NCBI GenBank assembly: GCA_002366595.1
Contig: DFBK01000011.1
Location: 13,540-77,539, forward strand
Reading direction: 5' to 3'
From: Anaerolineales bacterium UBA3082
GTDB taxonomy: Bacteria; Chloroflexota; Anaerolineae; UBA7937
Length of the DNA stretch: 64,000 bases
The notes under the pieces were generated by a model that was given only the letters and a program-made list of their open reading frames with translations, was not told the DNA's origin and did no database searches. Numbering within the stretch: position 1 is the stretch's first letter; each line of letters starts with the position of its first letter. Positions 31,854-48,588 of the stretch are shown here, piece by piece. The position numbers and the translations under genes are program-made.

Positions 31854-32883
31854 CCGCCTTTTGCCATCTCACCTCCTCGGTTGGCTTGCCATGGGCCTCC
31901 GGCCCCGCTAATCGAAAGAGCTGATAGCCGGCCTTCCAGGTGAAGAGCCCACCCAGCACCATCATGGGCAGGTAGACTATTAGGTGAAGCACTACCGTAT
32001 AGGCCAAGGCTGTCCCGCTCTCTATCCCGATAGTCGTGAGGGTGAGATAGCCAAGGTAGTGGAATACCCCCACCCGTCCTGGCGAGGTGGGTATCGCCAC
32101 TCCTACCTGGAGAACCACTAGGAGGAGCAGGGAACTCCACCAGGGTGCAACGATCCCCATACTGGAGAGAACCAACCAGTTAGTAGAGGCAGCCACAGCC
32201 CAGATCCCTGCTGACAACCCCAGTGACCAAACGACCACCCTCCAAGAGCCCAAAGAATCCACCCCTTCCAAAGCCACCATCACCTTCTGAAGAAGGCTTT
32301 TGACCAAAGAGTAGGGGGTCAACGCGCTCAGTCTATGCAAGCAGCTTGTTACCCATTCACGATTTCGGGCGGTGAGGAGAAGAGCGACGGAGAGGGCAAG
32401 CAAAATGGCAGCCGCTGCCAGTTCCCAACGACTCAGCCAAGATGGGAGAGAGATCACTGCCAAGAGCAAGGCGACCGAAATAAGGAGCATGATGGCCTCT
32501 AGGGTCTTCTCCACGACGATAGTCACCAGAGCCGAGGCCTTGCTGCGCTCTTCCAACTCACCCACCAGGTAGGCTCTAGCTAACTCCCCAACCCTCACCG
32601 GCAAAGCTGCATTGAGTGCCATTCCCACCAGCAAAATGCGAAAGAGTTGCCAACAACCAAGATCCCCCTGTCGTGGGTAAAAGAGCCACTTCCAGCGGTA
32701 AGCCTTCCCGGCGAGAGTGAGCAGGACCGAAAGAAAAGCCAAAAGCAACCAACCCGGCTGCACACTGGCAGCCGCCTGAGCTACTTGTTTCATATCAACA
32801 TCGCGAAGGGCGATTAAGAGCAAGAGCGCACCCAAAAGCGATCCCAAGGCTAGGCGGATGCCCATCGAGACTCTCTGGCCCAT
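31837..32883 (-). CDS. Flippase-like polytopic membrane protein (LPG-synthase-TM / UPF0104 family-like)
   Basis: 348 aa with ~8 TM helices. The N-terminus 'LALGSLLGALLLLIALRDVDMKQVAQAAASVQPGWLLLAFLSVLLTLAGKAYRWKWLF' is typical of this family, which is frequently paired with GT2 genes. Confidence 0.65.
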   Translation of the reverse strand: MGQRVSMGIRLALGSLLGALLLLIALRDVDMKQVAQAAASVQPGWLLLAFLSVLLTLAGKAYRWKWLFYPRQGDLGCWQLFRILLVGMALNAALPVRVGELARAYLVGELEERSKASALVTIVVEKTLEAIMLLISVALLLAVISLPSWLSRWELAAAAILLALSVALLLTARNREWVTSCLHRLSALTPYSLVKSLLQKVMVALEGVDSLGSWRVVVWSLGLSAGIWAVAASTNWLVLSSMGIVAPWWSSLLLLVVLQVGVAIPTSPGRVGVFHYLGYLTLTTIGIESGTALAYTVVLHLIVYLPMMVLGGLFTWKAGYQLFRLAGPEAHGKPTEEVRWQKADELPR

Positions 32884-36314: not shown

Positions 36315-36590
36315 TTATTCTATTTTTTCTGCTTGGTTAGTGGCCGATCTTTCTTCCTGCGGTATGGTTCTTAGTCTCACTGACAGGCCTGCCAACTCGG
36401 CCGCCCATTGCTTAATCGATTCTAGGTTTTTTGGGTTCGGTTTGGCCTCGTATTCGCGGGTGAGTTCTGCCAACACCTCGGCGATCCTCCTGATCCTCCT
36501 CAGGAGTTCCAGGTCAGCGTTGGTCAAGATAGAACTGGTCATTTGCACCTTAACTACCTCCTTCGGTGCTCCCGTCTTCGTGGTATTCAA
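36315..36590 (-). CDS. Hypothetical small helical protein (91 aa)
   Basis: ORF immediately upstream of wzc in the same orientation. Predicted all-helical ('ADLELLRRIRRIAEVLAELTREYEAK'). No recognisable motif. Confidence 0.4.
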   Translation of the reverse strand: MNTTKTGAPKEVVKVQMTSSILTNADLELLRRIRRIAEVLAELTREYEAKPNPKNLESIKQWAAELAGLSVRLRTIPQEERSATNQAEKIE

Positions 36591-36848
36591 CGGATACGCT
36601 TTCTGGTCAGAAGCTGCAACAGGCGATGCCTTCTACGATGACCGATATAGGTATGCCACCCATGGTTAGGTAACATCTGGAGCAGCCCCGCCCCTGGGCC
36701 ACGCTCGCAAGTGGGCTCCCTGGGGGAGCGATCCTCGGTGTCAAGGTTCTCGCTATGAAAGCCCTCTTTGTCCAGCGACTCCTGCTGCTTCACTACGACT
36801 ATCACCTTTCCTGGAGATCAAGACATAACGCCTTGCTACAGGGCTCTC

Positions 36849-38024
36849 TCATCTTGATGCCTTCCTGTTGAGCAAGGAGTTGGCGACGAGGAGCAGAAGC
36901 CGCGGTTGGGTTAGAGCGAGTTTAAAGAAGGCGTTCTTGAACACGTCTCTATTGTGGGTGGCCAGAAGATTCCTGGTTCTCGTGTTCAGCAACTCCAACA
37001 ATCGGTCGTAATCGCGGTCACCGAACCTATTCAAAACGGCCCGCATCAGAGAGTGAAGGTCGAGTTCCGCCTTCAGACCTCGAACCGTCCTTCGGTAAGG
37101 TGCTTGTCCCACTATGGCCCTGACCGCTGCCCTGGCGCCTCTTAAGCCAGCAACGACTCCTCCCACCGTCGTGGCCTTGACTTGTCCTCCAGCGTCCCCG
37201 ATGAGGAGGATCCTGGAATTCGAGATGGCGCGTGATGGTTTCAGTAGAGGATCGTGTAGAGGGACCTGAGCGGCTTGAAACTCGAGGGTTTCACACCCTT
37301 GTGAAGATAGAAAGCCCTCCAGATTATCCCTAACCCCCTTACCGTTCCTGGAGATCAGGCCTATGACTGCTCTGGCCTCTGATTCCGGGATAAGCCAGTA
37401 GAAGAACTCGGTTCGCTCTCTATCAAACCATACCTTTACGGAATCTGCTGAGGCTTGGTTGGGCAATACCACCTTCGCTTGAGCGATGGTTACCGTCTCC
37501 CTGGAGTCTCTTGAGGCAGCCTTGGCCACATTGCTAAGGACGCCGTCAGCCCCTATGAGCACGTTGGTGGTGATGGTGTACTGTCTGCCCTGGACAACGT
37601 TCTCCAAGGAAAGGAGTAACTTGTTCCCTTCGTCCTCAAAACCCAAGAAACGGAAGCCTGGGTATATTTTGGCGCCTTCCTCGGCGGCTTTCCTAGCCAA
37701 CAACTCGATGAGTCTCTGCCTTTCAATTACTAGGTCGGGCTCTTGTAGTGCCACCCAGGAGTGTCGGTGGGCAGAAATCAGCTCCATTCTATTGACCTTG
37801 TTTAAGATAGCCTCAGGCGGGACGAAGCCTAGAACTTCACTCAACTTGCTGGTGACGATCAGTGTCCTAGGAGGCTGGCCTAGACCTTCGTGCACATCAT
37901 ATAGTTGAACCGGGATGCGCTCTTTGGCCAGAAGATAGGCTGCAAATAAACCCGCGGTAGAAGCACCGACGATGACAACGTTATTTTGGTCCATTGGAAC
38001 TCTCATACCCTTCGCTGGTGACAT
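36849..38024 (-). CDS. FAD-dependent oxidoreductase, geranylgeranyl reductase (GGR/ChlP) family
   Basis: N-terminal FAD dinucleotide-binding 'NVVIVGASTAGLFAAYLLAK...QLYD', plus the GGR-family C-terminal motif 'ILLIGDAGGQVKATTVGGVVAGL' (GDAAG-x(n)-TGGG-like). Confidence 0.75.
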   Translation of the reverse strand: MSPAKGMRVPMDQNNVVIVGASTAGLFAAYLLAKERIPVQLYDVHEGLGQPPRTLIVTSKLSEVLGFVPPEAILNKVNRMELISAHRHSWVALQEPDLVIERQRLIELLARKAAEEGAKIYPGFRFLGFEDEGNKLLLSLENVVQGRQYTITTNVLIGADGVLSNVAKAASRDSRETVTIAQAKVVLPNQASADSVKVWFDRERTEFFYWLIPESEARAVIGLISRNGKGVRDNLEGFLSSQGCETLEFQAAQVPLHDPLLKPSRAISNSRILLIGDAGGQVKATTVGGVVAGLRGARAAVRAIVGQAPYRRTVRGLKAELDLHSLMRAVLNRFGDRDYDRLLELLNTRTRNLLATHNRDVFKNAFFKLALTQPRLLLLVANSLLNRKASR

Positions 38025-38086
38025 CTGAAATCGGTATCTGCTTCAAATAGCCATTCGACCATACCAGAGATGTTACTATCCCCAGG

Positions 38087-38377
38087 CTAGACCTGTCTCT
38101 TCTTCTCGCCCGCTTGTTCAGTGCCTTCTTGGCGCGGGGAAGAGAAGCCCGCCAGGCTACTGAGGGCCATGGCTATGCCGCCCGCAACACAGATAGCCAG
38201 AGCGAGGTAGGGCCTAGTTCCCACGAAGGCGATGGCGAGCAAGGAAAATAGAATCCATAAAGAAAGGGGCTCCAAAATCGTGATTAGAGATTTCATCGCC
38301 CTTCCATAGCAAGACTGGGTATCAAGCCTTCTGGGCCGAAAGTTCTTCTTCCACAAGTATGCCCTTGCGGAAGTCAA
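38087..38377 (-). CDS. Hypothetical small membrane protein (96 aa)
   Basis: Two hydrophobic helices ('LSLWILFSLLAIAFV', 'LALAICVAGGIAMALSSLAGF'). It overlaps the transaldolase 3' end by ~56 bp, so its coding status is uncertain. Confidence 0.3.
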   Translation of the reverse strand: MTSARAYLWKKNFRPRRLDTQSCYGRAMKSLITILEPLSLWILFSLLAIAFVGTRPYLALAICVAGGIAMALSSLAGFSSPRQEGTEQAGEKKRQV

Positions 38378-39101
38378 CTATCCCTCTGAGACGGTATCCT
38401 GCCTGCTGAGCATCGTTGTAGAACATCTTCACTGTATCCAGCGAGTACTCGTGCAGATCTTTACCAACCAAGGGTAACTTTCTCAGAATGTCGTGAGTGA
38501 CAGTGATGATGTGACACCCGACAGCATCGGCCTGGAATATATTGAGCAATTCACGGGGACTGGCCCAGATCAACTCAAGGTTTGGATACGGGCGCAGTAG
38601 TTGCACGGCTGCTGCCATCAAGGGCACGGGATCATGTCCGGTATCCGCAACACGCCCAGCGAAGACCGAAACAAAGCAGGATGGCCCTTCAGCAAGACAC
38701 TGGCTGATGTCCCGCACTTGATCCAATGTCATCATTGCCGTCACGTTCAATTTCACGCCAGCACGTGCCAACCTGCGCACCAGATCACAAGACGACTGAC
38801 CATGGGTGTTGGTGATGGGAATCTTGACATAGACGTTTTCGCCCCACGAGGAAATCTCTAACGCCTGACGTTCCATCTCGTCAAACTCGTCGGAGAAAAC
38901 CTCGAAGGAAATGGGGCGGTCAGGGATGGTGGCAGTGATTTCTTGGGCGAAGGCGCGATAGTCACTGACCTCCGCTTTGCGCATCAGAGTGGGATTCGTA
39001 GTGAATCCCTTGATCAGAGGGTTGCGATACAGTTCGAGCATGCCGGCCTTGTCGGCCCCGTCGGCGAAGATCTTGATGCTCAGATCGGCTAACCTTTTCA
39101 T
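38322..39101 (-). CDS. Transaldolase / fructose-6-phosphate aldolase family protein (TalC/Fsa-like)
   Basis: 'MKRLADLSIKIFADGADKAGMLELYRNPLIKGFTTNPTLMRKA' matches the Fsa/TalC N-terminal consensus (FaDgA...GvTTNP.L). Start taken at the internal Met (39101) that abuts the gmhB stop; the longest ORF extends to 39146. Confidence 0.75.
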   Translation of the reverse strand: MKRLADLSIKIFADGADKAGMLELYRNPLIKGFTTNPTLMRKAEVSDYRAFAQEITATIPDRPISFEVFSDEFDEMERQALEISSWGENVYVKIPITNTHGQSSCDLVRRLARAGVKLNVTAMMTLDQVRDISQCLAEGPSCFVSVFAGRVADTGHDPVPLMAAAVQLLRPYPNLELIWASPRELLNIFQADAVGCHIITVTHDILRKLPLVGKDLHEYSLDTVKMFYNDAQQAGYRLRGIVDFRKGILVEEELSAQKA

Positions 39102-39652
39102 CCTTTTTCCTCCTGCGCAGGCTGTGTGCGGCGCTGCAAAACCCAACCAACCGCTTCAATGAGTGAGCCAACCCGATGATCTGGGTTGTCCGGCTGTCTC
39201 TCTCTGTAACCATGGTCCACGAAGACGGTTTTGCACCCGGCGCGCTGCCCGGCTTCAATGTCTTTCCAGCGATCTCCCACCATGAAGCTGGCAGACAGAT
39301 CGATCTCCCAATCCTGTGCAGCCTCAAGTAGCAGGCCGGGCTCTGGCTTGCGACATGGGCAGTGGTCCGCATCGTCGTGATAACATACCCGCATGTCATC
39401 CAATGGCAGTCGTTTGCGCAGTACCTGATTCATCGCCTCTACGACTTCACGACGCTGAGTGCCCCGGGCTACACCTGGCTGGTTCGTCACAACGATGAGC
39501 AGGAAACCCGCTTCGTGTAATGAAGTGCAGGCCTCAACCACACCAGGCAGAATCTTCAGTTCGGCTAGGCTGCTAGGGGAATAGGGCCTGCCCTTCCGCG
39601 CAATGGCACGATTCAATACGCCATCCCGATCGAGAAAAACGGCCTGGTGCAT
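39098..39652 (-). CDS. gmhB: D-glycero-D-manno-heptose 1,7-bisphosphate phosphatase (HAD family, GmhB-like)
   Basis: HAD motif I 'AVFLDRDGVLN', motif II 'LIVVTNQ', and the GmhB-typical Cys-rich Zn-binding loop 'CYHDDADHCPCRKP' followed by 'GDRWKDIEAG'. Confidence 0.8.
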   Translation of the reverse strand: MHQAVFLDRDGVLNRAIARKGRPYSPSSLAELKILPGVVEACTSLHEAGFLLIVVTNQPGVARGTQRREVVEAMNQVLRKRLPLDDMRVCYHDDADHCPCRKPEPGLLLEAAQDWEIDLSASFMVGDRWKDIEAGQRAGCKTVFVDHGYRERQPDNPDHRVGSLIEAVGWVLQRRTQPAQEEKG

Positions 39653-39655
39653 GGT

Positions 39656-40249
39656 TCAGCTCACTGATTCCCACTTCATCGGCGACATTTGCAAAGCCGG
39701 ATGGGAAACCAGCAGGTGCCAGATCAGGGCCTGGAAGGACTCGGTATGGGGAGTGATGGTTTCCGGGTTCACTGGGGGGATGACCGCGCAGGCGTTGGCG
39801 ACCTGAGCAGTGTAACCACCGTCCCGGCCCACCACGCCGCAAATAGACGCTCCCACCTCCCGGGCGTATTGCAGGGCGCGCACCAGGTTGGGACTGATGT
39901 TATGCTCCAGGTCCCCGCCGCCGACCGAGAAGACAAAGATCATATCATTGCCGTTTAGGCGGCTCCCCTTCAGCCAGTTGACAAAGACCGATTCCCAGCC
40001 GTCGTCGTTGACCCGGGCGGTCAGTTCGGACACGTTGTCGGTGGGCGTGTAGGCCTCTATACCGACGATCTTTCGGAAGTCGTTCACAGCGTGGGAGGCA
40101 TGGCCAGCGCCGCCGACGCCCAGGAAGAAAAGCCGGCCGCCACGCTCACGAAGGGCGACCAGGAGATTAATCATCCTGTCAATGGCCTCCACGTCCAGAT
40201 TGCCCAGGATCTGGGATGCTTCTGACAGGTAATCTGTTGTGTATGACAT
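39656..40249 (-). CDS. gmhA: Sedoheptulose-7-phosphate isomerase (SIS domain, GmhA)
   Basis: 'GGRLFFLGVGGAGHASHAVNDF' and 'NDMIFVFSVGGG' are SIS-domain phosphosugar-binding motifs. The size (197 aa) matches GmhA. Confidence 0.85.
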   Translation of the reverse strand: MSYTTDYLSEASQILGNLDVEAIDRMINLLVALRERGGRLFFLGVGGAGHASHAVNDFRKIVGIEAYTPTDNVSELTARVNDDGWESVFVNWLKGSRLNGNDMIFVFSVGGGDLEHNISPNLVRALQYAREVGASICGVVGRDGGYTAQVANACAVIPPVNPETITPHTESFQALIWHLLVSHPALQMSPMKWESVS

Positions 40250-40384
40250 GCTTATCTCTACGACATTCTATGAGCCCGTAGCGAGCGGTGCTTGAGTGAC
40301 GAGTCGAAAGCCGCTTGGTCTGGTTTCGACAAGTTCAACCCAAGGGATGTGTCGCTTCGTCCCCTTCGGCAGGATCGGGCGACA

Positions 40385-41374
40385 TTAGAAATTCACCAGC
40401 ACCTTGGCGCCCTCGAAGTCGAAGTCGAAGGGCATCTCGCGGAGGCCCTCAGCAGCCATCGCTTGGCGCAGCCGGACTTTGTGATTATTGGGACAGTAGA
40501 ACATGAAGAAACCACCGCCGCCTGCTCCCATGATCTTGCCCCCCAAGGCGCCATTCTCCTTGGCGATATCGTACCAGCGGTCGATCTCCGGATGGCTGAT
40601 CTTGCCCGAGCGACGCTTCTTGTTCTGCCAATGCTCATCCAGCAAGAGGCCAAATCGCTCTAGATCGCCCTTCTTTAGCGCTTCCTTGATCCGGTACCCC
40701 AATTCCTTGGTACGATGCAGACTGTCAACTACGGCGGTGTCACCACGTTGCGTATCAACCTCCTGATCCTGTAGAATGTCCCGGCTGTGCCGGATGATAC
40801 CGGTGTAGAAGAGGAGGATGCAGTTGCGTAACTCCTCCATCGTGCTCCTGGAGATGCTTAGAGGACTGACGTGGACCGTGCCATCGGGGTCGATATCTAG
40901 ACAGGTGATGCCACCGAAAGCCGCCAGGTAGTGATCGTGTTTGCCTACGGGGTGGTGGGCTAGGTTCATCTCGATATGACAGGCTTGCTCGGCTAGGACT
41001 GGGGTCGGCACCTGCTCACGTTTGAAGGCATAGAGTGCGGTCAGGAGAGCGACGAGATAGCTCCCCGATGAGCCCAGGCCAGTGCCAGCTGGGACATCAG
41101 CCATGGAGACGATCTCCAAAGAGGTGTTGAGGTTGAGAAGCTTCAGCGTTGGGCGTACCAGGTCATGTTGGATGTCATCAACGCGGCTTACCTCCTCATA
41201 TCGGGAGTACTTGATCCGCAGCAGATTGTCGGCAGCCGGACGATTGGTATATACGTAAACGTACTTGTTAATGGCACCGCTGAGGATGAATCCGCCGTAG
41301 TGAGAATAATAAGAGGGCAGGTCAGTTCCACCCCCTCCCAGCGAGATCCGTAAGGGCGCTCTGGTTAAGATCAT
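40385..41374 (-). CDS. hddA: GHMP-family sugar kinase, D-glycero-alpha-D-manno-heptose 7-phosphate kinase (HddA-like)
   Basis: N-terminal 'ILTRAPLRISLGGGGTDL' and GHMP motif 2 'PAGTGLGSSGSYLVALLTAL'. It lies adjacent to gmhA, gmhB and the nucleotidyltransferase. Confidence 0.8.
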   Translation of the reverse strand: MILTRAPLRISLGGGGTDLPSYYSHYGGFILSGAINKYVYVYTNRPAADNLLRIKYSRYEEVSRVDDIQHDLVRPTLKLLNLNTSLEIVSMADVPAGTGLGSSGSYLVALLTALYAFKREQVPTPVLAEQACHIEMNLAHHPVGKHDHYLAAFGGITCLDIDPDGTVHVSPLSISRSTMEELRNCILLFYTGIIRHSRDILQDQEVDTQRGDTAVVDSLHRTKELGYRIKEALKKGDLERFGLLLDEHWQNKKRRSGKISHPEIDRWYDIAKENGALGGKIMGAGGGGFFMFYCPNNHKVRLRQAMAAEGLREMPFDFDFEGAKVLVNF

Positions 41375-41375
41375 G

Positions 41376-42089
41376 TCACTCTCCCTTCTCCCAGATGGCT
41401 TTCACCCGCTGCAGATCCTCCGGTGTATCAATCCACCAGAGATCTTCGCCTTGGGACATCCGATAGCCATATATCGCTTCTCCACGAGCCAGCAAAGATG
41501 GGAATAGATCATGACCGAAGTCAGATGGCGTACCGTCCGGGATGGCATCCAATACCTCTGGCTCTAGTACGAGGATCCCTGCGCTGACCCAGCCGCTGAA
41601 TACTTGGTGAGACTTCGGTTTCTCCACAAACCGGGTGATCCGGTCCTGGTCATCTAGATCAGCGATACCGCTGGCGATGGGGTCATCCCGATGGTAAAGT
41701 GCGATGGTGGCGATACCGCCCTTAGCCAGGTGGAAGACGACAAGCCGGTTCAAGTCACAAGTGGTCAGGTTATCGCCGTAGAGAACGAGGAAGGTGCTGT
41801 CGAACTGCTCTCGCACTCTTCTCACGGCCCCAGCCGTGCCAAGAAGTTCCGGTTCAAAGGAGTAGGTGATATGCACGCCCCAGCGTGAGCCATCGCCAAA
41901 GTGCTCAACGATCGTTTGAGGATGGTGGTGAAGGTTTATCACTGCCTCGCGAATGCCGTGGCGCGCGAGCAACTCCAGATTGTGTTCTAGAATAGGCTTG
42001 TCCCTTACGAGAACCATCGGTTTGGGGATGTGCTCGGTGAGAGGGCGGAGGCGAGTGCCCTGGCCCGCCGCCAGGATCATAGTCTTCAT
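41376..42089 (-). CDS. hddC: Sugar-1-phosphate nucleotidyltransferase, D-glycero-alpha-D-manno-heptose 1-phosphate guanylyltransferase (HddC-like)
   Basis: 'MKTMILAAGQGTRLRPLTEHIPKPMV' is the NTP-transferase signature G-x-G-T-R-L. A short 237-aa form as in HddC, with a 1-bp gap to hddA. Confidence 0.8.
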   Translation of the reverse strand: MKTMILAAGQGTRLRPLTEHIPKPMVLVRDKPILEHNLELLARHGIREAVINLHHHPQTIVEHFGDGSRWGVHITYSFEPELLGTAGAVRRVREQFDSTFLVLYGDNLTTCDLNRLVVFHLAKGGIATIALYHRDDPIASGIADLDDQDRITRFVEKPKSHQVFSGWVSAGILVLEPEVLDAIPDGTPSDFGHDLFPSLLARGEAIYGYRMSQGEDLWWIDTPEDLQRVKAIWEKGE

Positions 42090-42104
42090 GGTTGTGACTG
42101 ATTG

Positions 42105-43121
42105 TTAATTGTCAGCATCCGTCAACTTTACAACTCGGCCAGTCGCTGCGGATTCATAGACCGCGTACGCGAGCCTCAGGGCCTGCCACCCGTCGTAGCC
42201 GTTGCCGAGGGGCTGCCGATCCTCCCGAATGGCCGTCACGAACTCTCGCCATTCTTCCTCCCAGGAGACATCTGGGCCTGGAAACTCGAAACGCTTCTCC
42301 TCCGGGGGCCCTGATTGGGAGAGTCTCTTTCCCCAGATCAAACGTTCCAGCCCATAACTCCCCCCTAGCCCCTCCACAATCAGGTAACCTTCTCGGCCGA
42401 ATATCTCGAAGGAGAAGAGGTTCTTCCATTGAGTCCAACTGGCATGAAGGGAAGCCACCTGCCCTTTGGCTTTACGGAGAAGAGCAAACGCGTTATCCTC
42501 GACGGGCGTATTCCAGAATGAGGTTCCTGTGAAACCCACCACCTCATGAAAATCGCCCAGAAACCAGCGGAAGAGATCCAGAGCATGGATGCCTTGATCC
42601 AGCAACTCTCCACCGCCAGATATCTCCGGATTAGCCCGCCATTCCTTATCGTAGCCTGGCCTCCCGCCATGCCCGTAGCGGCAGCGAATGAAATAGAGCT
42701 CGCCGATAGCCCCTTGATCGAACAACTCACGTGCCTTCCGAATGGCGGCATGGTGTCGATGGTTGAAGCCCGTCTTCAGTTTGACCTTGTTTGCGCGAGC
42801 CGCCTTGACTATTTGCCAGGATTCTTCCGCGTTCCGTCCCAGGGGCTTCTCACAGAGGACATGCTTGCCATTCCGCGCCGCTTCTATGCTTATAGGCGCC
42901 AACCAGTCGTTGCTGGTGGAGACAATGACGGCCTCCACATCATCCCTGGCGACGACCTTTTGCCAGTCGGTTGTAGCCAAGCAGCCCATCTCTCTGGCCA
43001 GCGGTCTAGCCCGGCCCTCGTCCACGTCGGCCACAATTACCAACTCGTCACCAGGAGATTGGCGCACGACATCTGCCCGGCGGCAACCGATGAGACCACA
43101 CCCCACTATCCCGACACGCAT
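42105..43121 (-). CDS. Gfo/Idh/MocA family NAD(P)-dependent oxidoreductase (nucleotide-sugar dehydrogenase-like)
   Basis: 'MRVGIVGCGLIGCRRADVV' Rossmann motif and 'EKPLGRNAEE' (the EKP motif) typical of this family. Confidence 0.8.
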   Translation of the reverse strand: MRVGIVGCGLIGCRRADVVRQSPGDELVIVADVDEGRARPLAREMGCLATTDWQKVVARDDVEAVIVSTSNDWLAPISIEAARNGKHVLCEKPLGRNAEESWQIVKAARANKVKLKTGFNHRHHAAIRKARELFDQGAIGELYFIRCRYGHGGRPGYDKEWRANPEISGGGELLDQGIHALDLFRWFLGDFHEVVGFTGTSFWNTPVEDNAFALLRKAKGQVASLHASWTQWKNLFSFEIFGREGYLIVEGLGGSYGLERLIWGKRLSQSGPPEEKRFEFPGPDVSWEEEWREFVTAIREDRQPLGNGYDGWQALRLAYAVYESAATGRVVKLTDADN

Positions 43122-43123
43122 AG

Positions 43124-43990
43124 CTACTTCAGTTTGTCCATCAGCGGCCGCAAGGTGTACGGATCCATGCGGCGCAGAGTGAACCAGGGCGCAGACATCA
43201 CCTCGGCGATGCGGTCAGCGTCCCAGGACTGCCAGTCATCGTAGGGAGCAGCAATGAGTTTGCCAGTCAACCCATCCGAGTCATCCGAGGCCAGGAACAC
43301 GACCAGTTGTGCCGGCAGCTCTCGAGGCACGCCACCCTCGCCGGTCTCCCTCAACCGGCGGATGCGAGCCAGCAGGTCGCCTGCCCGCTCACCGGCCGTC
43401 AACACTTGGTCTTGCAGGCGAGTATCCACGGCACCAGGGGCGACAACGTTGACCTGGATGTTGAACTCTTTGACCTCTTCGGCCAGGGTCTCGGTCAGCC
43501 GCACACTAGCCGTCTTGGAGACGCCGTAGGCCGTGAAGCGCGGGAGCGGCGATGTCGCGCCCCCTCCAGAGAAGTTAACAATCTTCCCCTGCCGAGATTC
43601 TATCATGTGGGGCAGTACAGTATGGCAACACATAAACGTGCCAAGGAGATTGATCTGGATCGCCTGGATCCACTCATCCACATCTATGTCCCACATGGGA
43701 CCAATGGGGCCGTAGACACCGGCGGCGTTGACCAAGATGTCAATCTGGCCATAGGTGGTCAAGGTGGCCTCAACCAGCTGTAACACATCATCCTGTCTGG
43801 ACACGTCCGTGCGGATGACCTGAACCTGACCACCCATCTTCCGAATTTGGGCTGCAACCTGCTCAAGCTCGGTCTGGGTGCGGGAGGCGATGGCGAGGCG
43901 CGCACCTTCTCGGGCGAACGCCAGAGCAATGGCTTCGCCGATGCCACGTCCCCCGCCGGTGATGATGGCGACTTTGCCTTGCAGCCTCAC
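43124..43990 (-). CDS. Short-chain dehydrogenase/reductase (classical SDR)
   Basis: 'GKVAIITGGGRGIGEAIALAFAREGA' is a TGxxxGxG cofactor motif. 'NAAGV' and a catalytic Y-x3-K ('YGVSK') are present. Confidence 0.8.
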   Translation of the reverse strand: MRLQGKVAIITGGGRGIGEAIALAFAREGARLAIASRTQTELEQVAAQIRKMGGQVQVIRTDVSRQDDVLQLVEATLTTYGQIDILVNAAGVYGPIGPMWDIDVDEWIQAIQINLLGTFMCCHTVLPHMIESRQGKIVNFSGGGATSPLPRFTAYGVSKTASVRLTETLAEEVKEFNIQVNVVAPGAVDTRLQDQVLTAGERAGDLLARIRRLRETGEGGVPRELPAQLVVFLASDDSDGLTGKLIAAPYDDWQSWDADRIAEVMSAPWFTLRRMDPYTLRPLMDKLK

Positions 43991-45315
43991 GATTGACTCC
44001 TTCCCAGCGAAATACCCCGGCCGATCCCAGAGTAGGCAAACCCTAGTTGAATCATTTCTGTCGGGTCGAAGACATTCCTGGTATCAATGAACAGTGGCCG
44101 ACGCATGGCAGCGCGCAGGCAGGGTAAATCCAGGTCGTGAATGCCCGCCCACTCGGTTACGAGCACGAGGGCATCACTGCCCTCAGCAGCAGCATAGGGG
44201 TCGGGACAGGGTTCAAAGGGGGGCAGGTCGGCCACTTCATCCAGGCGGGCCAGTGGGTCGAAGGCTTTGACGGAAGCCCCCTGGGCGACCAAATCACGGA
44301 TGATGTCCAGGGCGATAGATCGGCGCAGAGTGCTGGTGCCGGGCTTATAGGTCAGGCCTAGGATGCCTACCTGAAGGCCCTCCAGCGAGTCGTATATCCT
44401 CTGCAGGCGTCGCCCCACCAGGCTGGCACGCGCCTGATTGACGACCATCACCGCGTCTATCATGGGGGTGTCACACCCGTGTTGCTGACCGAGCCTCTGG
44501 AGTGCCCGAATCTCGCGCCCCAGGGTGCCCCCGGCGAACCCCAGTCCCGGCTTGAGAAAGGCGTACCTACTGATTCGCCGATCAAGCTTCATAATCTGAG
44601 CTACCTGCAATGCGTCGGCGCCGACTTCATCGCACAGGCTGGCCATCTCATTGATAAAGCTGATGGAGGCGGCCAGAAAGGCATTGGAGGCATGCTTCGC
44701 CATCTCCGCGGTGCGCAGGCCGGTGATGACAATGGGCCGACCCAGGGGGCGATAGAGGGCCGCAATCCGTTCAGCCACGGCAGGGTCATTGGCACCCACC
44801 ACGAAACGGTCCGCACGGCGGAAGGTATCCACCGCTGCTCCCAGACGCAGGAACTCCGGCACGTAGGCCACGTCGAGGGCTGCCGCCGGATTCTCCTCCC
44901 GCACAATGGCGGTGATGCGCTCGCAGGTACCTACCGGCACCTGAGCACTGACGATCAGGATCAACTCCCCAGACATGGCCTGTCCGATATGCCGGGCTGC
45001 TTCGAAGATGCTGGTCAAATCCGATTCATCATCAGGTCCCACTGGCGTGTCGATGGCGATGTAGGCAAACTCGGCTCCGTGCAGTGCCTCTCTGTAGTCA
45101 GTCGTATACTTCAACCGCCCGGACCGCACGTTGCGGCGCATGATCGTTTTGAGTTTCGGCTCGTACACCGGAGGTTGGCCGGCGTTCAAGGCAGCCACAA
45201 CCCTCTCGTCATCACCCACTCCGCACACCTGGTGCCCCATGTCGGCTAGGCACGCAGACAACACCGACGCCTGATGCCAGAGGCCGACTATGCAGATGTT
45301 CGCCAATGTGCTCAC
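43987..45315 (-). CDS. Nucleotide-sugar dehydrogenase (UDP-glucose/GDP-mannose dehydrogenase family)
   Basis: N-terminal Rossmann 'ICIVGLWHQASVLSACLADMGHQV' and a central catalytic Cys in 'GLGFAGGTLGREIRAL' (GGxCxxKD-like region is 'FAGGTLG'). The three-domain length (442 aa) fits the family. The 4-bp ATGA overlap with the SDR gene indicates coupling. Confidence 0.75.
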   Translation of the reverse strand: MSTLANICIVGLWHQASVLSACLADMGHQVCGVGDDERVVAALNAGQPPVYEPKLKTIMRRNVRSGRLKYTTDYREALHGAEFAYIAIDTPVGPDDESDLTSIFEAARHIGQAMSGELILIVSAQVPVGTCERITAIVREENPAAALDVAYVPEFLRLGAAVDTFRRADRFVVGANDPAVAERIAALYRPLGRPIVITGLRTAEMAKHASNAFLAASISFINEMASLCDEVGADALQVAQIMKLDRRISRYAFLKPGLGFAGGTLGREIRALQRLGQQHGCDTPMIDAVMVVNQARASLVGRRLQRIYDSLEGLQVGILGLTYKPGTSTLRRSIALDIIRDLVAQGASVKAFDPLARLDEVADLPPFEPCPDPYAAAEGSDALVLVTEWAGIHDLDLPCLRAAMRRPLFIDTRNVFDPTEMIQLGFAYSGIGRGISLGRSQS

Positions 45316-45406
45316 TCCTGTCTTTGCCTGATGGCAGATGGCTGATGGCCCAAGACCGACCGCCGACGGCCGACCGGAACGAATGACGGCAGTCCGTAAT
45401 CAGCGG

Positions 45407-46612
45407 TCAGCCGTCGATCCGCTGGATGACCCCCTGCTCGCGCATCACCCGCTCTGCCTCTTCCAGGTACTCTTTCGTGCCCCGCTGCTTACGGATCCAG
45501 GCAATATACTCCACCACGCTCTGCTCCACTGGGATGGTGGGCTCCCATCCCAGGACGCGAAGTTTGGAGATGTCCGACACGGTGTGGCGGGTGTCTCCGA
45601 GCCGGAACTCGCCGGGAATGAGGGGCTCCAGATCGCTGTCGAAGGCATCCAACATGATGCGGGCGAACTCCAGGACGGTGACCGCTCGGCCACCGCCCAC
45701 ATTGAAGACCTCAAAGTTGGCCCGGTCATCTTCCAAGACTAAGAGGTTAGCCCGGGCGACGTCACAGACATTAACGTAGTCGCGCAGTTGTTGGCCATCC
45801 TCATAGATGATGGGGGGCAGGCCATGGAGCAGGCGGAGAGCGAAGCGGCGAGCGATGCCAGAGTAGGCGTTGTAGAAGGAGTTGCGGGGCCCCTGCACGT
45901 AGGTGTAGCGCATGCAGACCGTAGGGATACCGTAGCGCCGGCCCAGCCGATCGGCCAGCAGTTCGATGGCGTACTTGGAGATGCCATAGGCAGTACCAGG
46001 GCTGACCGTGTCTTCGTCAATCAACACCGGCTGCATGACCCCACCACAGTCGGGGCAATGGATTTCCCAGTCGCCGCGTTTCAATTGTTCCAATGGGCGT
46101 GGGGCAGGGATGTGGATGGCGGATGACAGAAGATGGAAGGTGGAAGAATGGAGCGCGGCCAGTTGTTCATGGACGGTGGGCGGGTTGATGCCGCCGGCGC
46201 AGGTGGGGCAGAGATACCGACCCTCACCACACACCGCCTGGGACGAGGCGAAGGTGATCTTTTGCACAGGGTAGCGCTCCCGGTTGGAGACAATGAGCTC
46301 GAAGAGGAGAGCAGCGCTCTCTGTGTTGGTATGAATAAAGGTGGAGAAATCGGGCATGTAGTCCTGGTAGGCAGCCAGGTGAAAGACGTAGTCCACACCC
46401 CGGAGCGCCCGGCTCAGATCATCTTGGTTCACCACGTCGCCCTGGATGAACTCAGCCTCTTTCGGCATGTAGGAGGGCTTGCCTCTAGGGTGTACCCGGG
46501 GTTGCAGGTTGTCCAGGATGCGGACACGATAGCCCTTTTCCAGCAGCAGATCAACCGTATGGGAGCCGATGAAACCAGCCCCGCCGGTCACAAGCACTTT
46601 TGGTGATGGCAT
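45407..46612 (-). CDS. Extended-SDR NAD-dependent epimerase/dehydratase with ~50-aa four-cysteine (zinc-ribbon-like) insertion
   Basis: 'KVLVTGGAGFIGSHTVDLLLEKGYRV' is the TGGAGFIG motif. The catalytic Ser region is 'FASSQAVCGEG', and Y-x3-K is 'YGISK'. About 70 residues separate the catalytic Ser and Tyr, versus ~25 in typical extended SDRs. The insert contains 'CGEGRYLCPTCAGG' and 'CPDCGGV'. Confidence 0.8.
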   Translation of the reverse strand: MPSPKVLVTGGAGFIGSHTVDLLLEKGYRVRILDNLQPRVHPRGKPSYMPKEAEFIQGDVVNQDDLSRALRGVDYVFHLAAYQDYMPDFSTFIHTNTESAALLFELIVSNRERYPVQKITFASSQAVCGEGRYLCPTCAGGINPPTVHEQLAALHSSTFHLLSSAIHIPAPRPLEQLKRGDWEIHCPDCGGVMQPVLIDEDTVSPGTAYGISKYAIELLADRLGRRYGIPTVCMRYTYVQGPRNSFYNAYSGIARRFALRLLHGLPPIIYEDGQQLRDYVNVCDVARANLLVLEDDRANFEVFNVGGGRAVTVLEFARIMLDAFDSDLEPLIPGEFRLGDTRHTVSDISKLRVLGWEPTIPVEQSVVEYIAWIRKQRGTKEYLEEAERVMREQGVIQRIDG

Positions 46613-46700
46613 TTAGATACCATATAGGTGGTAGTACCTCGTGACGGAGAGCGTGGGATATGCAAATATCTACAGCCAGCCGTCGGCCGTCGGGCACGGG

Positions 46701-47366
46701 CTAATAGTTGCTGCCCGACAGCACATACCAAGCCGCACCGAAGAGGAGTTTGATATCAAGCCAGAGGGACCAGTTATCAATGTACTCCAGGTCAAGTTTG
46801 ATCCACTCTTTGAACTCTTTGGGCTTGCCTCGGACGTGCCAGAGGCAAATCATGCCGGGGGTGACGCTGAGTTTGCGCCGTTGCCACTCTTCAAAATGTT
46901 CCCACTCCGCAGGACCGACTGGGCGGGGGCCGACTAGGCTCATGTCGCCTTTGAGGACGCTCCAGAGTTGGGGCAGTTCATCCAGGCTGAACTTGCGTAA
47001 GACGCGGCCCACGGGCGTAACCCGCGGGTCATTTTTTAGTTTGAAGGTGGGGCCGTTCCTCTCGTTGTATTGCCAGAGGTCTTTCTTCAGTCCGTCGGCG
47101 TTGACGACCATGGTACGGAGTTTGTAGCCGGTGAATCTTTTGCCGCCTTTTCCAATCACAACCCATTGATAGAGAACAGGACCAGGTGAGGTAATCTTGA
47201 TAACTGCGCCGATAGCGAGCAGAAGCGGAGTTAAGATAACCAACGACATGGCAGAAATACCCACATCAAGTATCCGTTTCACACCCAATTGCCATCGAGA
47301 AGCAAGCAGACGTGTCTGACCAAGATGCCTCAGGGGCATTTTCTCTGGAGACACATCATGCAGCAT
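46701..47366 (-). CDS. Small monotopic phosphoglycosyltransferase (PglC/WcaJ-C-terminal-like sugar transferase, Bac_transf)
   Basis: 'KRILDVGISAMSLVILTPLLLAIGAVIKITSPGPVLYQWVVIGKGGKRFTGYKLRTMVVNAD...DELPQLWSVLKGDMSLVGPRP' is the complete Bac_transf signature in a 221-aa protein. Confidence 0.9.
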   Translation of the reverse strand: MLHDVSPEKMPLRHLGQTRLLASRWQLGVKRILDVGISAMSLVILTPLLLAIGAVIKITSPGPVLYQWVVIGKGGKRFTGYKLRTMVVNADGLKKDLWQYNERNGPTFKLKNDPRVTPVGRVLRKFSLDELPQLWSVLKGDMSLVGPRPVGPAEWEHFEEWQRRKLSVTPGMICLWHVRGKPKEFKEWIKLDLEYIDNWSLWLDIKLLFGAAWYVLSGSNY

Positions 47367-48588
47367 GCTGCCGCTCCTTCCGCTTTTTCTCTGTTACACC
47401 ACCTTGACCTACGTTATCTTGTTGATGCAGGATCTTGTGATAGAACTTCTCTAACTGAGTAGTGAGCATTTCCCACGAAAGTTGCTCTTCTGCTATCCGC
47501 CTGGCATTGGAGCCCATTTCCTCCCGCAAGCCTTGATCTTCCAGGAGAGATAGCGTTGCTCTGGCAAAGCCTTGAGGATTATCATTGGCCAACAAGCCGA
47601 TATTGTGCTCTCTGAACAACACCGATACATCACCCACCGGACAGGTTATGATTGGTCTGCCTACGGCAAGGTAATCGTTTATCCTTGACGGCCACCTCGC
47701 TTGGTTACTAGTAGTGTTGCAGAGAGGAAGCATTAGTATGTCACAAGCGGCGAGATATCTAACCAAATTCTCGTAATCGACGTAACCGGTTTCTATCACG
47801 GCGGTAGCGCTAATTTCGTGTAGCGCGATATTTGCTCTATGATTGCCAATCATAATCAACTTGCAGTCGCTATGACGCTTATGAATAACCGCGAAGGCAT
47901 TTAAGAGGAGTGCAGCGTCCTTCGGCTGCAATACCCCCAAATGGCCGAGTAAAGGAGCCTCGAGAGGGAGGCCGAGGGCCCGTCGCGCCTCGAACTGGTC
48001 TAGTGGTCTGATCCGCTCAACGTCTGAACCTTGAGGAATCCTCATGATGGTGCTTTCATTCACCTGCAGGGAGAGCGCGCGCTGATAGAGCGCTTGACTG
48101 ATCACTGTAGTGCCATCTGCATACTTGCGAAAGGCTTCCTCGAAAAAGGTTTCTATCGGAGCTAGCATGCGCCACAGCAGTTGATTTGGTCGCTCATAGA
48201 TTGTCCCACCTCTGCCCCACCAGTCCGCCCAATCCAATACGAGTTTGCTTTGCTGCATGGTTTTGTGGTAAAGCGCCGGAAGAATGACCGCAGGTCGTGA
48301 ATCGAACGCATGAACAAGGTCGAAAGACCGATCATGAACATATGCTATGCGATTCAGCGTGTCCCAAGGATCCCAACCTGATCGGGTGACTCCCCAAAGG
48401 AGGTCAGGCGTCTCAAACACCTTTAGGCCTTCAATGACCTTCTCCCTAAACCCGTAGCGCAAAGTAGGAGAGATTGTCAGTAGCGTGACCCGATGCCCTC
48501 GCCGCGCTAGGTGTCGACCGAAGTGATAGGCTCGAAAGAAGGTACCACCGCGCCAGGCAACATTGTGGTTGAGCATCAAGATGCGCAT
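47356..48588 (-). CDS. Glycosyltransferase family 4
   Basis: 'MRILMLNHNVAWRGGTFFRAYHFGRHLARRGHRVTLLT' is a GT4 N-domain. The C-terminal domain has 'LLGHLGVLQPKDAALLLNAF' and 'PLCNTTSNQARWPSRINDYLAVGRPIITCPVGD'. Start taken at the internal Met abutting the upstream stop; the longest ORF extends to 48681. Confidence 0.8.
   Translation of the reverse strand: MRILMLNHNVAWRGGTFFRAYHFGRHLARRGHRVTLLTISPTLRYGFREKVIEGLKVFETPDLLWGVTRSGWDPWDTLNRIAYVHDRSFDLVHAFDSRPAVILPALYHKTMQQSKLVLDWADWWGRGGTIYERPNQLLWRMLAPIETFFEEAFRKYADGTTVISQALYQRALSLQVNESTIMRIPQGSDVERIRPLDQFEARRALGLPLEAPLLGHLGVLQPKDAALLLNAFAVIHKRHSDCKLIMIGNHRANIALHEISATAVIETGYVDYENLVRYLAACDILMLPLCNTTSNQARWPSRINDYLAVGRPIITCPVGDVSVLFREHNIGLLANDNPQGFARATLSLLEDQGLREEMGSNARRIAEEQLSWEMLTTQLEKFYHKILHQQDNVGQGGVTEKKRKERQHAA

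Follow-up and report, generated by a model that had tools for sequence, protein, structure and literature searches.

What sugar is made by a block of genes whose core enzymes belong to the families of heptose biosynthesis and whose phosphatase gene is followed by a transaldolase gene? This question is raised by a locus of Anaerolineales bacterium UBA3082 within the stretch of 64,000 nucleotides that we analysed (hereafter, the window). The earlier note on this DNA described five genes of the locus as a complete GDP-heptose cassette with its own supply of sedoheptulose-7-phosphate (S7P). We consider that the product of the cassette is an activated sugar with seven or eight carbons, destined for a surface polysaccharide, and that, by analogy, its gene set appears to fit the lincomycin octose pathway better than the known heptose pathway. 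Our literature search found no paper describing the cassette.

Extent and setting of the cassette

The five open reading frames were confirmed at 38322-42089, all on the minus strand, and their enzyme families had been correctly named: a SIS isomerase, a GHMP (not ribokinase-type) kinase, a HAD phosphatase with a Cys loop and a short nucleotidyltransferase. The cassette is larger than this five-gene block and consists of nine genes (46612-38322). Because the epimerase, the UDP-glucose-dehydrogenase (UGDH)-like protein, the SDR and the Gfo oxidoreductase are conserved cassette parts, the functional unit reaches 46612.

45407-46612, minus strand: GalE-like extended-SDR epimerase/dehydratase gene (Pfam Epimerase, two stretches)
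43987-45315, minus strand: Cys-less UDP-glucose/GDP-mannose-dehydrogenase-family gene (three UDPG_MGDP_dh domains)
43124-43990, minus strand: classical SDR oxidoreductase gene (adh_short, 188 bits)
42105-43121, minus strand: Gfo/Idh/MocA NAD(P) oxidoreductase gene (Pfam GFO_IDH_MocA N and C domains)
41376-42089, minus strand: NTP_transferase (nucleotidyltransferase, NT) gene, 237 aa
40385-41374, minus strand: GHMP kinase gene, 329 aa
39656-40249, minus strand: SIS/GmhA-like isomerase gene, 197 aa
39098-39652, minus strand: HAD-IIIA/GmhB-like phosphatase gene, 184 aa
38322-39101, minus strand: transaldolase (TAL) gene, 259 aa from ATG (PF00923)

The cassette is surrounded by a Wzy/Wzz/glycosyltransferase polysaccharide cluster, as expected from the surface-polysaccharide setting proposed earlier for the heptose-like genes. 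The neighbouring oxidoreductases, previously described as adjacent genes that may modify the heptose or a second nucleotide sugar, are integral and conserved members of the cassette rather than optional add-ons.

Core enzymes and the heptose pathway

The cassette shares its four-step logic and enzyme superfamilies (isomerase, GHMP 1-kinase, HAD distal phosphatase and nucleotidyltransferase) with the GDP-heptose pathway of GmhA, HddA, GmhB and HddC, which is known from the S-layer glycan of Aneurinibacillus and the capsules of Campylobacter, Yersinia and Burkholderia. According to the first alternative to an octose, the four core enzymes convert S7P to NDP-(GDP-)D-glycero-alpha-D-manno-heptose, the transaldolase raises S7P (F6P + E4P -> S7P + GAP), and the oxidoreductases modify the heptose. 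We regard this as possible, if rather doubtful. The closest characterised relatives of the core enzymes are GmhA, the heptose-7-phosphate kinases and GmhB with its zinc loop, and the top NCBIfam names are those of heptose enzymes. Moreover, heptoses are common in surface glycans, in which octoses are not known to us, and we are aware of no report of a neutral octose in a bacterial polysaccharide. However, in both cassette variants the core enzymes score just 11-45% of the equivalog cut-offs. The description as a complete GDP-heptose cassette is only partly supported: the cut-offs of the NCBIfam heptose equivalogs were missed by gmhA (33.5 vs. 209 bits), HddA (168 vs. 600), alpha-GmhB (86 vs. 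250) and HddC (93 vs. 300).

The SIS protein gave no match in a Pfam search at 1e-3, and it scores 26-36 bits against the NCBIfam gmhA models, whose cut-offs are 209-320. Its closest PDB matches are GmhA structures (approximately 35 bits), and the metal-binding and catalytic His/Asp/Glu/His residues of GmhA are aligned. In place of the GmhA phosphate loop STSGxS, the protein has SVGGGxxE(K/H)NIS, which is six residues longer, and all cassette copies share the invariant motifs ASHAVNDFRK and SVGGG...S.N. Relatives with E<=1e-30 form 403 clusters at 50% identity. Judged from these features, the protein is a predicted ketose/aldose phosphate isomerase of a divergent GmhA-like subfamily. The HAD phosphatase exceeds the cut-off of TIGR01656 (135 bits) and falls under those of the NCBIfam GmhB models (129 vs. 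178; 86 vs. 250); its DxD motif and C-x-H...C-x-C-RKP zinc loop have aligned counterparts in E. coli GmhB (3l8e). We propose that it strips a sugar 1,n-bisphosphate of its distal (C7 or C8) phosphate.

The kinase has both the GHMP N and C domains, and its top NCBIfam match is HddA. In the PDB it matches the heptose-7-phosphate kinases 3k85 (173 bits), WcbL (4usk, 163 bits) and 4n3o (136 bits), whereas galactokinases and mevalonate kinases score below 40 bits, in agreement with the earlier classification. It is, by sequence, a putative GHMP-family anomeric sugar-phosphate kinase of the HddA/WcbL/LmbP-like kind, with identities of 76-93% in window-type cassettes and approximately 50% in the common variant. 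The sugar-1-phosphate nucleotidyltransferase (PF00483, 158 bits) had been taken for HddC. However, its best matches are an Rv-type mannose-1-phosphate guanylyltransferase (153 bits, vs. 93 for HddC) and, in the PDB, the UTP-glucose-1-phosphate enzyme 8x7s (173 bits), with approximately 105 bits for mannose-1-phosphate guanylyltransferases and 64 bits for the HddC structures 5xhw and 6jq8. A match of this kind had been named in the earlier note as evidence against HddC; the enzyme is not HddC-like, and "GDP" is therefore unsupported for the product. The common cassette variant has a different nucleotidyltransferase, sited after the kinase and approximately 30% identical to that of the window.

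The cassette therefore differs from the GDP-heptose pathway in its remodelled GmhA phosphate loop, in its nucleotidyltransferase and in the wide margins by which the cut-offs are missed. It also carries a linked or fused transaldolase and a tailoring set of Cys-less UGDH-like, Gfo and SDR genes, and we know of no characterised heptose cluster with a transaldolase or with the UGDH-like and Gfo pair. A literature search for a heptose cluster with a transaldolase found none. Heptose tailoring, as far as it is known, relies on extended-SDR and cupin enzymes.

Another higher sugar would arise if transaldolase/aldolase-type chemistry on an acceptor such as arabinose-5-phosphate or a hexose-6-phosphate gave a stereoisomeric octulose or nonulose, which would then be isomerised, activated and tailored. 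Such a product would accord with an isomerase subfamily distinguished from GmhA by invariant motifs of its own and by a larger phosphate loop, with the service of the module by two unrelated nucleotidyltransferase types, and with the absence from the sequences of any feature that would fix the acceptor. However, we are aware of no precedent, and the match to the lincosamide genes in size and family is already complete without a new substrate. We consider this alternative unlikely.

The transaldolase as part of the module

The transaldolase starts at the ATG at 39101, which is preceded by a GGAGGA Shine-Dalgarno sequence and overlaps the HAD stop codon (ATGA); the gene thus abuts the phosphatase gene, as first described. 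The listed start at 39146 (TTG) was rejected as an upstream extension, because homologues begin at the same residue as the ATG at 39101. The protein passes the NCBIfam model TIGR02134 (340 bits; cut-off, 282) and matches PF00923 with 130 bits. Its earlier assignment to the Fsa/TalC type was not confirmed (fsa_talC, 79.5 vs. a cut-off of 246); the TAL-type Glu/Phe pair is present, and the FSA-type Gln/Tyr pair is absent. All catalytic residues of T. acidophilum TAL are kept (D6, N28, E60, K86, N108, T110, F132, R135, S167 and R169), which makes the ordinary reaction to S7P fully possible.

The "staphylococcal-type" short transaldolases of TIGR02134 share the family and the full catalytic set of the window enzyme. 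The members from Staphylococcus and Lactobacillus stand alone and are approximately 48% identical to it, whereas the cassette enzymes form part of a sugar-nucleotide module and in some cases are fused to its other proteins. Stand-alone copies are known from Firmicutes and from a Streptomyces plasmid.

The cassette occurs in at least 522 species-level genomes from more than 12 phyla, archaea included, and its cultured carriers include Rhizobium jaguaris CCGE525, Skermanella stibiiresistens SB22 and Lawsonia intracellularis. In the 80 best of the genome loci, which number at least 522, transaldolase identity is 67-92%. In 61 of 77 transaldolase-seeded genome loci, SIS-HAD lies immediately upstream on the same strand, and both genes are present anywhere in the locus in 71. 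Conversely, a transaldolase lies within 1.5 kb downstream of SIS in 44 of the 49 evaluable SIS-seeded metagenome loci (90%), and a linked copy is missing from the other five. Fusion proteins of the types HAD-TAL (P0007, P0020, P0025, P0028 and P0102), SIS-HAD, HAD-SIS and NT-SIS were found. In an archaeal cassette, the identities are similar, with 62% (NT), 76% (GHMP), 77% (SIS), 74% (HAD) and 85% (TAL). The SIS-HAD-TAL arrangement is far beyond chance. The ATGA coupling, the HAD-TAL fusions, this adjacency, the SIS-seeded linkage and the archaeal copy of the module establish the transaldolase as an integral module part.

We propose that this enzyme makes the ketose-phosphate precursor, either octulose-8-phosphate from ribose-5-phosphate and a C3 donor or S7P from erythrose-4-phosphate. 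S7P supply, as suggested earlier for a heptose, is possible given the canonical and complete active site; in addition, NCBIfam annotates the family as a housekeeping transaldolase, and the five SIS-seeded loci manage without a linked copy. However, we would not expect an enzyme that merely duplicated an existing supply to remain translationally coupled or fused to the phosphatase across more than 12 phyla, or to show the highest conservation in the module. The lineage labels of carriers include Burkholderiaceae, Enterobacteriaceae-labelled MAGs, Rhizobium and Acidobacteriota, groups that normally have the pentose phosphate pathway and therefore S7P. S7P supply is not the most parsimonious role, because the characterised heptose clusters known to us do without a transaldolase and the lincosamide octose pathway is the only match of which we are aware. 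That the enzyme is a housekeeping pentose-phosphate transaldolase merely lying beside a sugar-nucleotide operon would agree with its TIGR02134 membership, active site and stand-alone relatives, but this account is disfavoured and very improbable in view of the phosphatase fusions, the ATGA coupling, the 90% linkage from isomerase seeds and the joint transfer with the module into archaea.

Lincosamide comparison and proposed pathway

In the lincosamide GDP-octose pathway, to our knowledge the sole characterised pathway with this gene set, octulose-8-phosphate is the transaldolase product, and the LmbM, LmbL and LmbZ classes perform 6-epimerisation and 6,8-dehydration in lincomycin biosynthesis. 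At the family level, the cassette matches the lincosamide genes LmbR, N, P, K, O, L, Z and M one to one. According to published descriptions, which underlie this matching, K is a phosphatase, M an epimerase, N an isomerase, Z an oxidoreductase, P a kinase, O a nucleotidyltransferase and R a transaldolase, and L belongs to the nucleotide-sugar dehydrogenase family (CcbL, 436 aa) (PMC4351081). The UGDH-like counterpart in cassette locus L024 also has 436 aa, protein sizes are alike in the lincosamide set and the window cassette, and the order Z-P-O corresponds to Gfo-GHMP-NT in the common variant. LmbM, LmbL, CcbZ and CcbS turn GDP-octose into GDP-lincosamide (PMC12945683). As of 2015, CcbK, N, P, O and Z had their closest non-lincosamide relatives in Solibacter, Sorangium and Acidobacteria, and the one for CcbN was named "sugar phosphatase" (PMC4351081), which is consistent with the taxa and SIS-HAD fusions of the cassette. 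LmbR/CcbR has 222 aa, and its closest reported relative is a Cellulomonas short transaldolase (PMC4351081); its parallel with the TIGR02134-type enzyme may reflect analogy rather than shared descent. The lincosamide genes lie in an antibiotic cluster of a few Streptomyces, whereas the cassette lies in a polysaccharide cluster and is spread over its many phyla. Moreover, the lincosamide pathway has the aminotransferase LmbS, which the window cassette lacks, having a classical SDR instead.

The UGDH-like protein (LmbL/CcbL-class) matches TIGR03026 with 342 bits. Aligned to UGDH 4a7p, it has AGGTLGRE in place of GGSCFPKD and GLWHQA in place of GxGxVG. All 21 copies linked to a cassette share this Cys-less signature, and one unlinked UGDH (L020) is canonical. 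Because the catalytic Cys is missing, a uronic acid cannot be made, and the role must differ. Among the 77 loci, 40 have the Gfo gene beside that of the kinase (identity, 45-88%), and the Gfo counterpart in the Lawsonia cassette is annotated as a Gfo/Idh/MocA family oxidoreductase; we propose this LmbZ/CcbZ-class protein as a partner in exocyclic chain modification. The SDR gene sits between the UGDH-like and Gfo genes, is conserved in the common layout, and is proposed to encode a ketoreductase at the position of LmbS. The epimerase (LmbM-class) carries a 64-residue Cys4 insertion; its top PDB match, T. maritima GalE (4zrm), aligns over residues 5-139 and 204-375, and it is 76% identical in loci L001 and L004. 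The common variant is headed by a GalE-like gene of 318 aa. Archaeal and some other loci contain the five-gene core without the tailoring genes, which indicates that the tailoring part is optional.

Because the families equal those of the Lmb genes, with only LmbS missing, we favour an NDP-octose, probably 8-deoxygenated, over a GDP-heptose with a supply transaldolase, and we give this analogy-based assignment an even chance of being correct. What we observed are the families to which the genes belong, their conservation, synteny and fusions, and the catalytic residues; a C5 acceptor instead of a C4 one, the nucleotide and the chemistry of tailoring are inferred. By analogy with LmbR/N/P/K/O, the transaldolase would shift a dihydroxyacetone unit from fructose-6-phosphate or S7P to ribose-5-phosphate, and the resulting octulose-8-phosphate would be converted to octose-8-phosphate by the divergent SIS isomerase, phosphorylated at C1 by the GHMP kinase, relieved of its 8-phosphate by the GmhB-like phosphatase and joined to a nucleotide by the nucleotidyltransferase. 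The epimerase, the Cys-less UGDH-like protein and the Gfo oxidoreductase would then rework the exocyclic chain, and the SDR would reduce a ketone where the lincomycin route transaminates, giving an NDP-8-deoxy-octose. The nine genes would thus represent one horizontally mobile module that makes an NDP higher-carbon sugar de novo, fed by pentose phosphate pathway intermediates and delivering its product to the surrounding Wzy-type polysaccharide cluster.

Gene content and setting of the cassette

The five core genes at 38322-42089 are tightly packed and all lie on the minus strand. The earlier note described this interval as the whole unit. All five genes are present, but the unit is larger than claimed and also takes in the genes of a Gfo/Idh/MocA oxidoreductase (Gfo), an SDR, a UDP-glucose-dehydrogenase-family (UGDH-like) protein and a GalE-like epimerase. 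These four precede the core on the minus strand and are separated by -4 to 91 nt.

Genes of the cassette in the window, from high to low coordinate
46612-45407, minus strand, GalE-like epimerase, upstream of the UGDH-like gene
45315-43987, minus strand, UDP-glucose-dehydrogenase-family protein, upstream of the SDR gene
43990-43124, minus strand, SDR, upstream of the Gfo gene
43121-42105, minus strand, Gfo/Idh/MocA oxidoreductase, upstream of the nucleotidyltransferase gene
42089-41376, minus strand, nucleotidyltransferase (NTP_transferase), 237 aa
41374-40385, minus strand, GHMP kinase, 329 aa
40249-39656, minus strand, SIS-like protein (GmhA-like isomerase), 197 aa
39652-39098, minus strand, HAD-IIIA phosphatase (GmhB-like), 184 aa
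39101-38322, minus strand, transaldolase, 259 aa

The transaldolase gene does abut the phosphatase gene, as had been proposed; its ATG start at 39101, preceded by GGAGGA, forms an ATGA overlap with the phosphatase TGA, and the homologues have the same start residue. A promoter and terminator scan of 36500-47500 detected nothing exceeding shuffled expectation. The kinase and isomerase genes are separated by a 135-nt spacer (40250-40384), which is approximately 80% conserved with 8697-8849 of the homologous locus L001 and missing from three other loci (L002, L004 and L007); a search for promoter-like sites in this spacer detected none.

The surrounding region encodes Bac_transf, three GT4 glycosyltransferases, Wzy_C, Wzz-kinase, LPG_synthase_TM, an ABC-2 permease and a carbamoyltransferase, and the setting of the cassette is a surface-polysaccharide cluster. 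The carbamoyltransferase (NodU/CmcH type; 49756-51509, minus strand) is divided between one ORF for Carbam_trans_N (50157-51509) and an overlapping one for Carbam_trans_C (49756-50253), which suggests a frameshift, a pseudogene or a sequencing error. A gene for a geranylgeranyl-reductase-family flavoprotein (36849-38024, minus strand) is located approximately 300 nt downstream of the transaldolase gene, and it was not seen beside the cassette in the other loci with gene content listed. An LPG_synthase_TM (PF03706) membrane-protein gene recurs near the cassette, at 31837-32883 (minus strand) in the window, at 17851-18903 in L001 and at 10698-11681 in the homologous locus L087; on plasmid 3 of Lawsonia intracellularis, it lies directly 3′ of the transaldolase gene and overlaps it. 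This protein is a candidate flippase or transferase for the cassette product.

Core enzymes and the models of GDP-heptose synthesis

According to the earlier note, the core comprises gmhA, hddA, gmhB and hddC together with an Fsa/TalC-type transaldolase. The last assignment is contradicted by two observations. First, the window transaldolase passed the NCBIfam model TIGR02134 (340 bits, cut-off 282) and failed fsa_talC (TIGR00875; 79.5 bits, cut-off 246). Second, in comparison with the T. acidophilum transaldolase (3s0c), the Schiff-base Lys and the Asp/Glu/Asn/Thr/Phe/Arg/Ser set are all kept, including the Glu/Phe pair that sets transaldolases apart from F6P aldolases, whereas the FSA signature has Gln for Glu and a catalytic Tyr for Phe. 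By both the curated cut-off and the catalytic residues, the enzyme is a member of the TIGR02134 transaldolases. The seed of this model derives in part from Coxiella; that lead was rejected, as the O-antigen region of C. burnetii uses GmhA and a reversed HldE-type enzyme, not the cassette. Stand-alone TIGR02134-type relatives occur in Firmicutes at approximately 48% identity to the window enzyme, and the cassette transaldolases do not form a cleanly separate clade because the copy in the Lawsonia cassette is merely 52% identical. A further TIGR02134-like transaldolase (48% identical) is encoded on plasmid p3211-1 of Streptomyces sp. 3211 (L088, 7465-11424), where it is flanked by a D-arabinono-1,4-lactone oxidase and an HxpB-type phosphatase and adjoined by an MFS transporter; this locus was ruled out as a cassette and represents a different small sugar module.

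The sugar-phosphate enzymes keep the family assignments of the earlier note and fall short of its specific ones. The isomerase scored below the cut-offs of all four gmhA equivalogs (TIGR00441, 33.5 vs. 209; NF010547, 35.8 vs. 320; NF010546, 30 vs. 276; NF001628, 25.8 vs. 265), a copy from the common cassette layout scored 53.7 against the cut-off of 209, and no Pfam SIS match was found at 1e-3. It is thus very divergent, with approximately 35 bits against GmhA models and structures. The metal and catalytic positions of Burkholderia pseudomallei GmhA (His, Glu, Gln/Glu and His in this family) are matched in the alignment by His, Asp (for Glu), Glu and His, and a GmhA-like fold is evident from the sequence. 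The Ser-rich phosphate loop has been replaced: it reads SVGGGDLEHNIS as opposed to the S-T-S-G-x-S of GmhA and is six residues longer. The loop motif SVGGGxxE(K/H)NIS and the motif ASHAVNDFRK are invariant in the cassette copies, and this GmhA-like subfamily comprises 403 clusters at 50% identity. The phosphatase has the HAD-IIIA fold motifs, including the GmhB DxD and zinc loop, but remains below the GmhB cut-offs (NF006506, 129 vs. 178; TIGR00213, 93 vs. 150; NF050049, 86 vs. 250). The closest solved relatives of the GHMP kinase are heptose-7-phosphate kinases of the HddA type (136-173 bits), although the HddA equivalog NF049969 was missed (168 bits, cut-off 600); galactokinases and mevalonate kinases scored <40 bits, in agreement with the earlier note. 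The identification of hddC was not sustained. The nucleotidyltransferase scored 93 bits against the HddC equivalog NF049965 (cut-off 300) and, among solved structures, 64 bits against HddC (5xhw and 6jq8) vs. 173 bits against 8x7s, so it is much nearer to Rv-type/GMPP-type enzymes and PDB 8x7s than to HddC.

The lincosamide parallel and the predicted product

In the lincosamide pathway, ribose-5-phosphate is said to be the acceptor in octulose-8-phosphate formation (the work of Sasaki et al. in 2012), and the steps of 6-epimerisation, 6,8-dehydration, 6-transamination and 4-epimerisation was reportedly described by Wang et al. in 2020. According to work cited in PMC4351081, the transaldolase LmbR forms octulose-8-phosphate, LmbN isomerises it, and LmbP, LmbK and LmbO lead to GDP-octose, which is converted to GDP-lincosamide by LmbM, LmbL, CcbZ and CcbS (PMC12945683). 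The proteins tabulated for celesticetin and lincomycin are, for the core, a transaldolase, a GmhA-like isomerase, a galactokinase-like kinase, a GmhB-like phosphatase and a nucleotidyltransferase and, beyond it, a 436-aa nucleotide-sugar-dehydrogenase-family protein, a Gfo-type oxidoreductase and a GalE-like epimerase (PMC4351081). Compared by these published descriptions, the lincosamide octose genes and the cassette agree exactly in their protein families; the proteins are of similar length, and Gfo, kinase and nucleotidyltransferase follow one another in the order seen in the common cassette layout. In both systems, a transaldolase is encoded with the set of isomerase, kinase, phosphatase and nucleotidyltransferase, and a UGDH-family protein, a Gfo/Idh/MocA oxidoreductase and an epimerase are found beside this core (classes according to PMC4351081). 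The PLP aminotransferase LmbS, which produces the 6-amino sugar, is missing from the cassette, and an SDR is in its place. A lincosamine-like variant with an aminotransferase replacing the SDR inside the cassette was not found across the loci; DegT-type aminotransferase genes occur approximately 5 kb downstream of the cassette in some Acidobacteriota/Thermoanaerobaculia loci (L043, L066, L071 and L073). By analogy, the cassette appears to work like the lincosamide octose pathway at the family level, and it is not a lincosamide cluster.

The closest reported relative of the celesticetin transaldolase CcbR is a short transaldolase of Cellulomonas (PMC4351081), so CcbR and the TIGR02134 enzyme may not be orthologues. 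Such non-orthology could be convergent evidence that modules of this type need a transaldolase, and it could equally indicate that the lincosamide parallel is superficial. No named LmbN or CcbN was present among the 150 best phmmer matches to the isomerase in a representative library, which extended down to approximately 43% identity; ten candidates were checked, and they proved to be a Curtobacterium protein, one protein of an Acidobacteria MAG and unnamed metagenomic proteins.

Two of the upstream proteins have unusual features. The UGDH-like protein differs from UDP-glucose 6-dehydrogenase in lacking both the catalytic Cys, which is replaced by Thr (AGGTLGRE where GGSCFPKD is expected), and the NAD fingerprint GxGxVG (GxGxxG), in place of which it has GLWHQA. 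The Cys-less signature was found in 21/21 cassette-linked copies of other genomes, and the unlinked UGDH of a further locus, L020, is canonical. The window epimerase (45407-46612) is lengthened by approximately 64 residues, inserted at roughly 140-203 and right before YxxxK. The insertion contains two CxxC pairs (CPTC...CPDC) and is possibly a zinc ribbon; L001 and L004 have the same long epimerase at 76% identity.

The predicted core logic, from a ketose-phosphate through an aldose-phosphate, a 1,n-bisphosphate and a 1-phosphate to an NDP-sugar, is not in doubt. On the lincomycin model, the entry compound would be octulose-8-phosphate, and the resulting NDP-octose would undergo 6,8-dehydration, followed by keto reduction, to yield an 8-deoxy-octose; we regard this product, proposed by analogy, as an even call. 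Octulose-8-phosphate is favoured because the family set, the protein lengths and the Gfo-kinase-nucleotidyltransferase order match the lincosamide pathway. The main competing explanation is that of the earlier note, in which sedoheptulose-7-phosphate (S7P) is the substrate and the transaldolase is its supplier. The kinship of the kinase with HddA-type enzymes speaks for it; however, every curated GDP-heptose threshold was missed by the core enzymes, we know of no characterised heptose cluster with a transaldolase or the UGDH-like/Gfo pair, and S7P is already an ordinary metabolite in most carrier lineages. A heptose product is accordingly possible but doubtful. The ordinary active site of the transaldolase and its stand-alone relatives in Firmicutes are weak points of the octose proposal, and the use of yet another acceptor by this enzyme seems unlikely.

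Distribution and linkage of the cassette

A scan with one genome per species recovered at least 522 relatives of the transaldolase (the best 80 of these are 67-92% identical), and metagenomes contain thousands at 80-92% identity, several of which are fusions with the HAD phosphatase. The relatives come from Chloroflexota, Acidobacteriota, Planctomycetota, 'Deltaproteobacteria', Nitrospirota, Methylomirabilota, Patescibacteria, Elusimicrobia, Verrucomicrobiota, Burkholderiales, Coxiellaceae, Holosporaceae, Actinomycetota and others, and they include a Methanomethylicaceae archaeon. Among cultured bacteria, the cassette is carried by Rhizobium jaguaris CCGE525 and Rhizobium sp. CB3060 (on chromids), Skermanella stibiiresistens and Lawsonia intracellularis (an annotated cassette on plasmid 3). 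To our knowledge, no glycan composition has been published for the two Rhizobium strains or L. intracellularis. A query with the copy from an Enterobacteriaceae-labelled MAG found no match in 5,426 E. coli genomes.

Seventy-seven transaldolase-seeded loci had enough upstream sequence to be judged. The isomerase and phosphatase genes immediately precede the transaldolase gene in 61 of them and both occur somewhere in the locus in 71; the kinase is present in 61, a nucleotidyltransferase in 56, the Gfo gene in 40, the SDR in 37 and the UGDH-like gene in 27. As a control for seeding bias, the search was re-seeded with the isomerase in metagenomes, and a transaldolase gene lay no more than 1.5 kb downstream in 44 of 49 evaluable loci. 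Fusions of four types (HAD-transaldolase, SIS-HAD, HAD-SIS and nucleotidyltransferase-SIS) were also found, and it is highly improbable that the transaldolase is merely adjacent to the cassette. The five isomerase-seeded loci without a linked transaldolase and the archaeal locus, which consists of the five-gene core alone, are further weak points of the octose proposal.

In the most frequent layout, the gene order is epimerase, UGDH-like, SDR, Gfo, GHMP kinase, nucleotidyltransferase, isomerase, phosphatase and transaldolase; the cassette in the window belongs to a rarer variant with a different nucleotidyltransferase sited before the kinase and a long epimerase. In the locus of a Coxiellaceae MAG (L055, 4929-10705), the epimerase, UGDH-like, SDR, Gfo and kinase genes are followed directly by the transaldolase gene; no isomerase, phosphatase or nucleotidyltransferase was detected in this 20-kb locus, which is therefore a cassette variant with a split core.

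The searchable literature yielded no description of the cassette and nothing relevant on a transaldolase-containing heptose or octose polysaccharide cluster. We tentatively propose, at slightly less than even confidence, that the cassette is a widespread and horizontally mobile NDP-octose (probably 8-deoxy) pathway, that neutral C8 aldoses are regular constituents of the surface polysaccharides of hundreds of bacterial and some archaeal species, including L. intracellularis and Rhizobium, and that the lincosamine sugar pathway of Streptomyces was recruited from this pool. Should the product be a heptose, the searchable literature would still lack a description of a nine-gene module whose transaldolase is obligatory and sometimes fused, of a family of cysteine-less UGDH-like enzymes and of a distinct GmhA-like isomerase subfamily, and the current annotations of the cassette genes ('transaldolase, pentose-phosphate shunt', 'galactokinase' and 'nucleotide sugar dehydrogenase') are misleading. 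An octose product would mean that a sugar class so far known only from a few antibiotics is common in the envelopes of many uncultured phyla, a pig pathogen and a legume symbiont, and it would make it possible to trace where the lincomycin sugar pathway came from.
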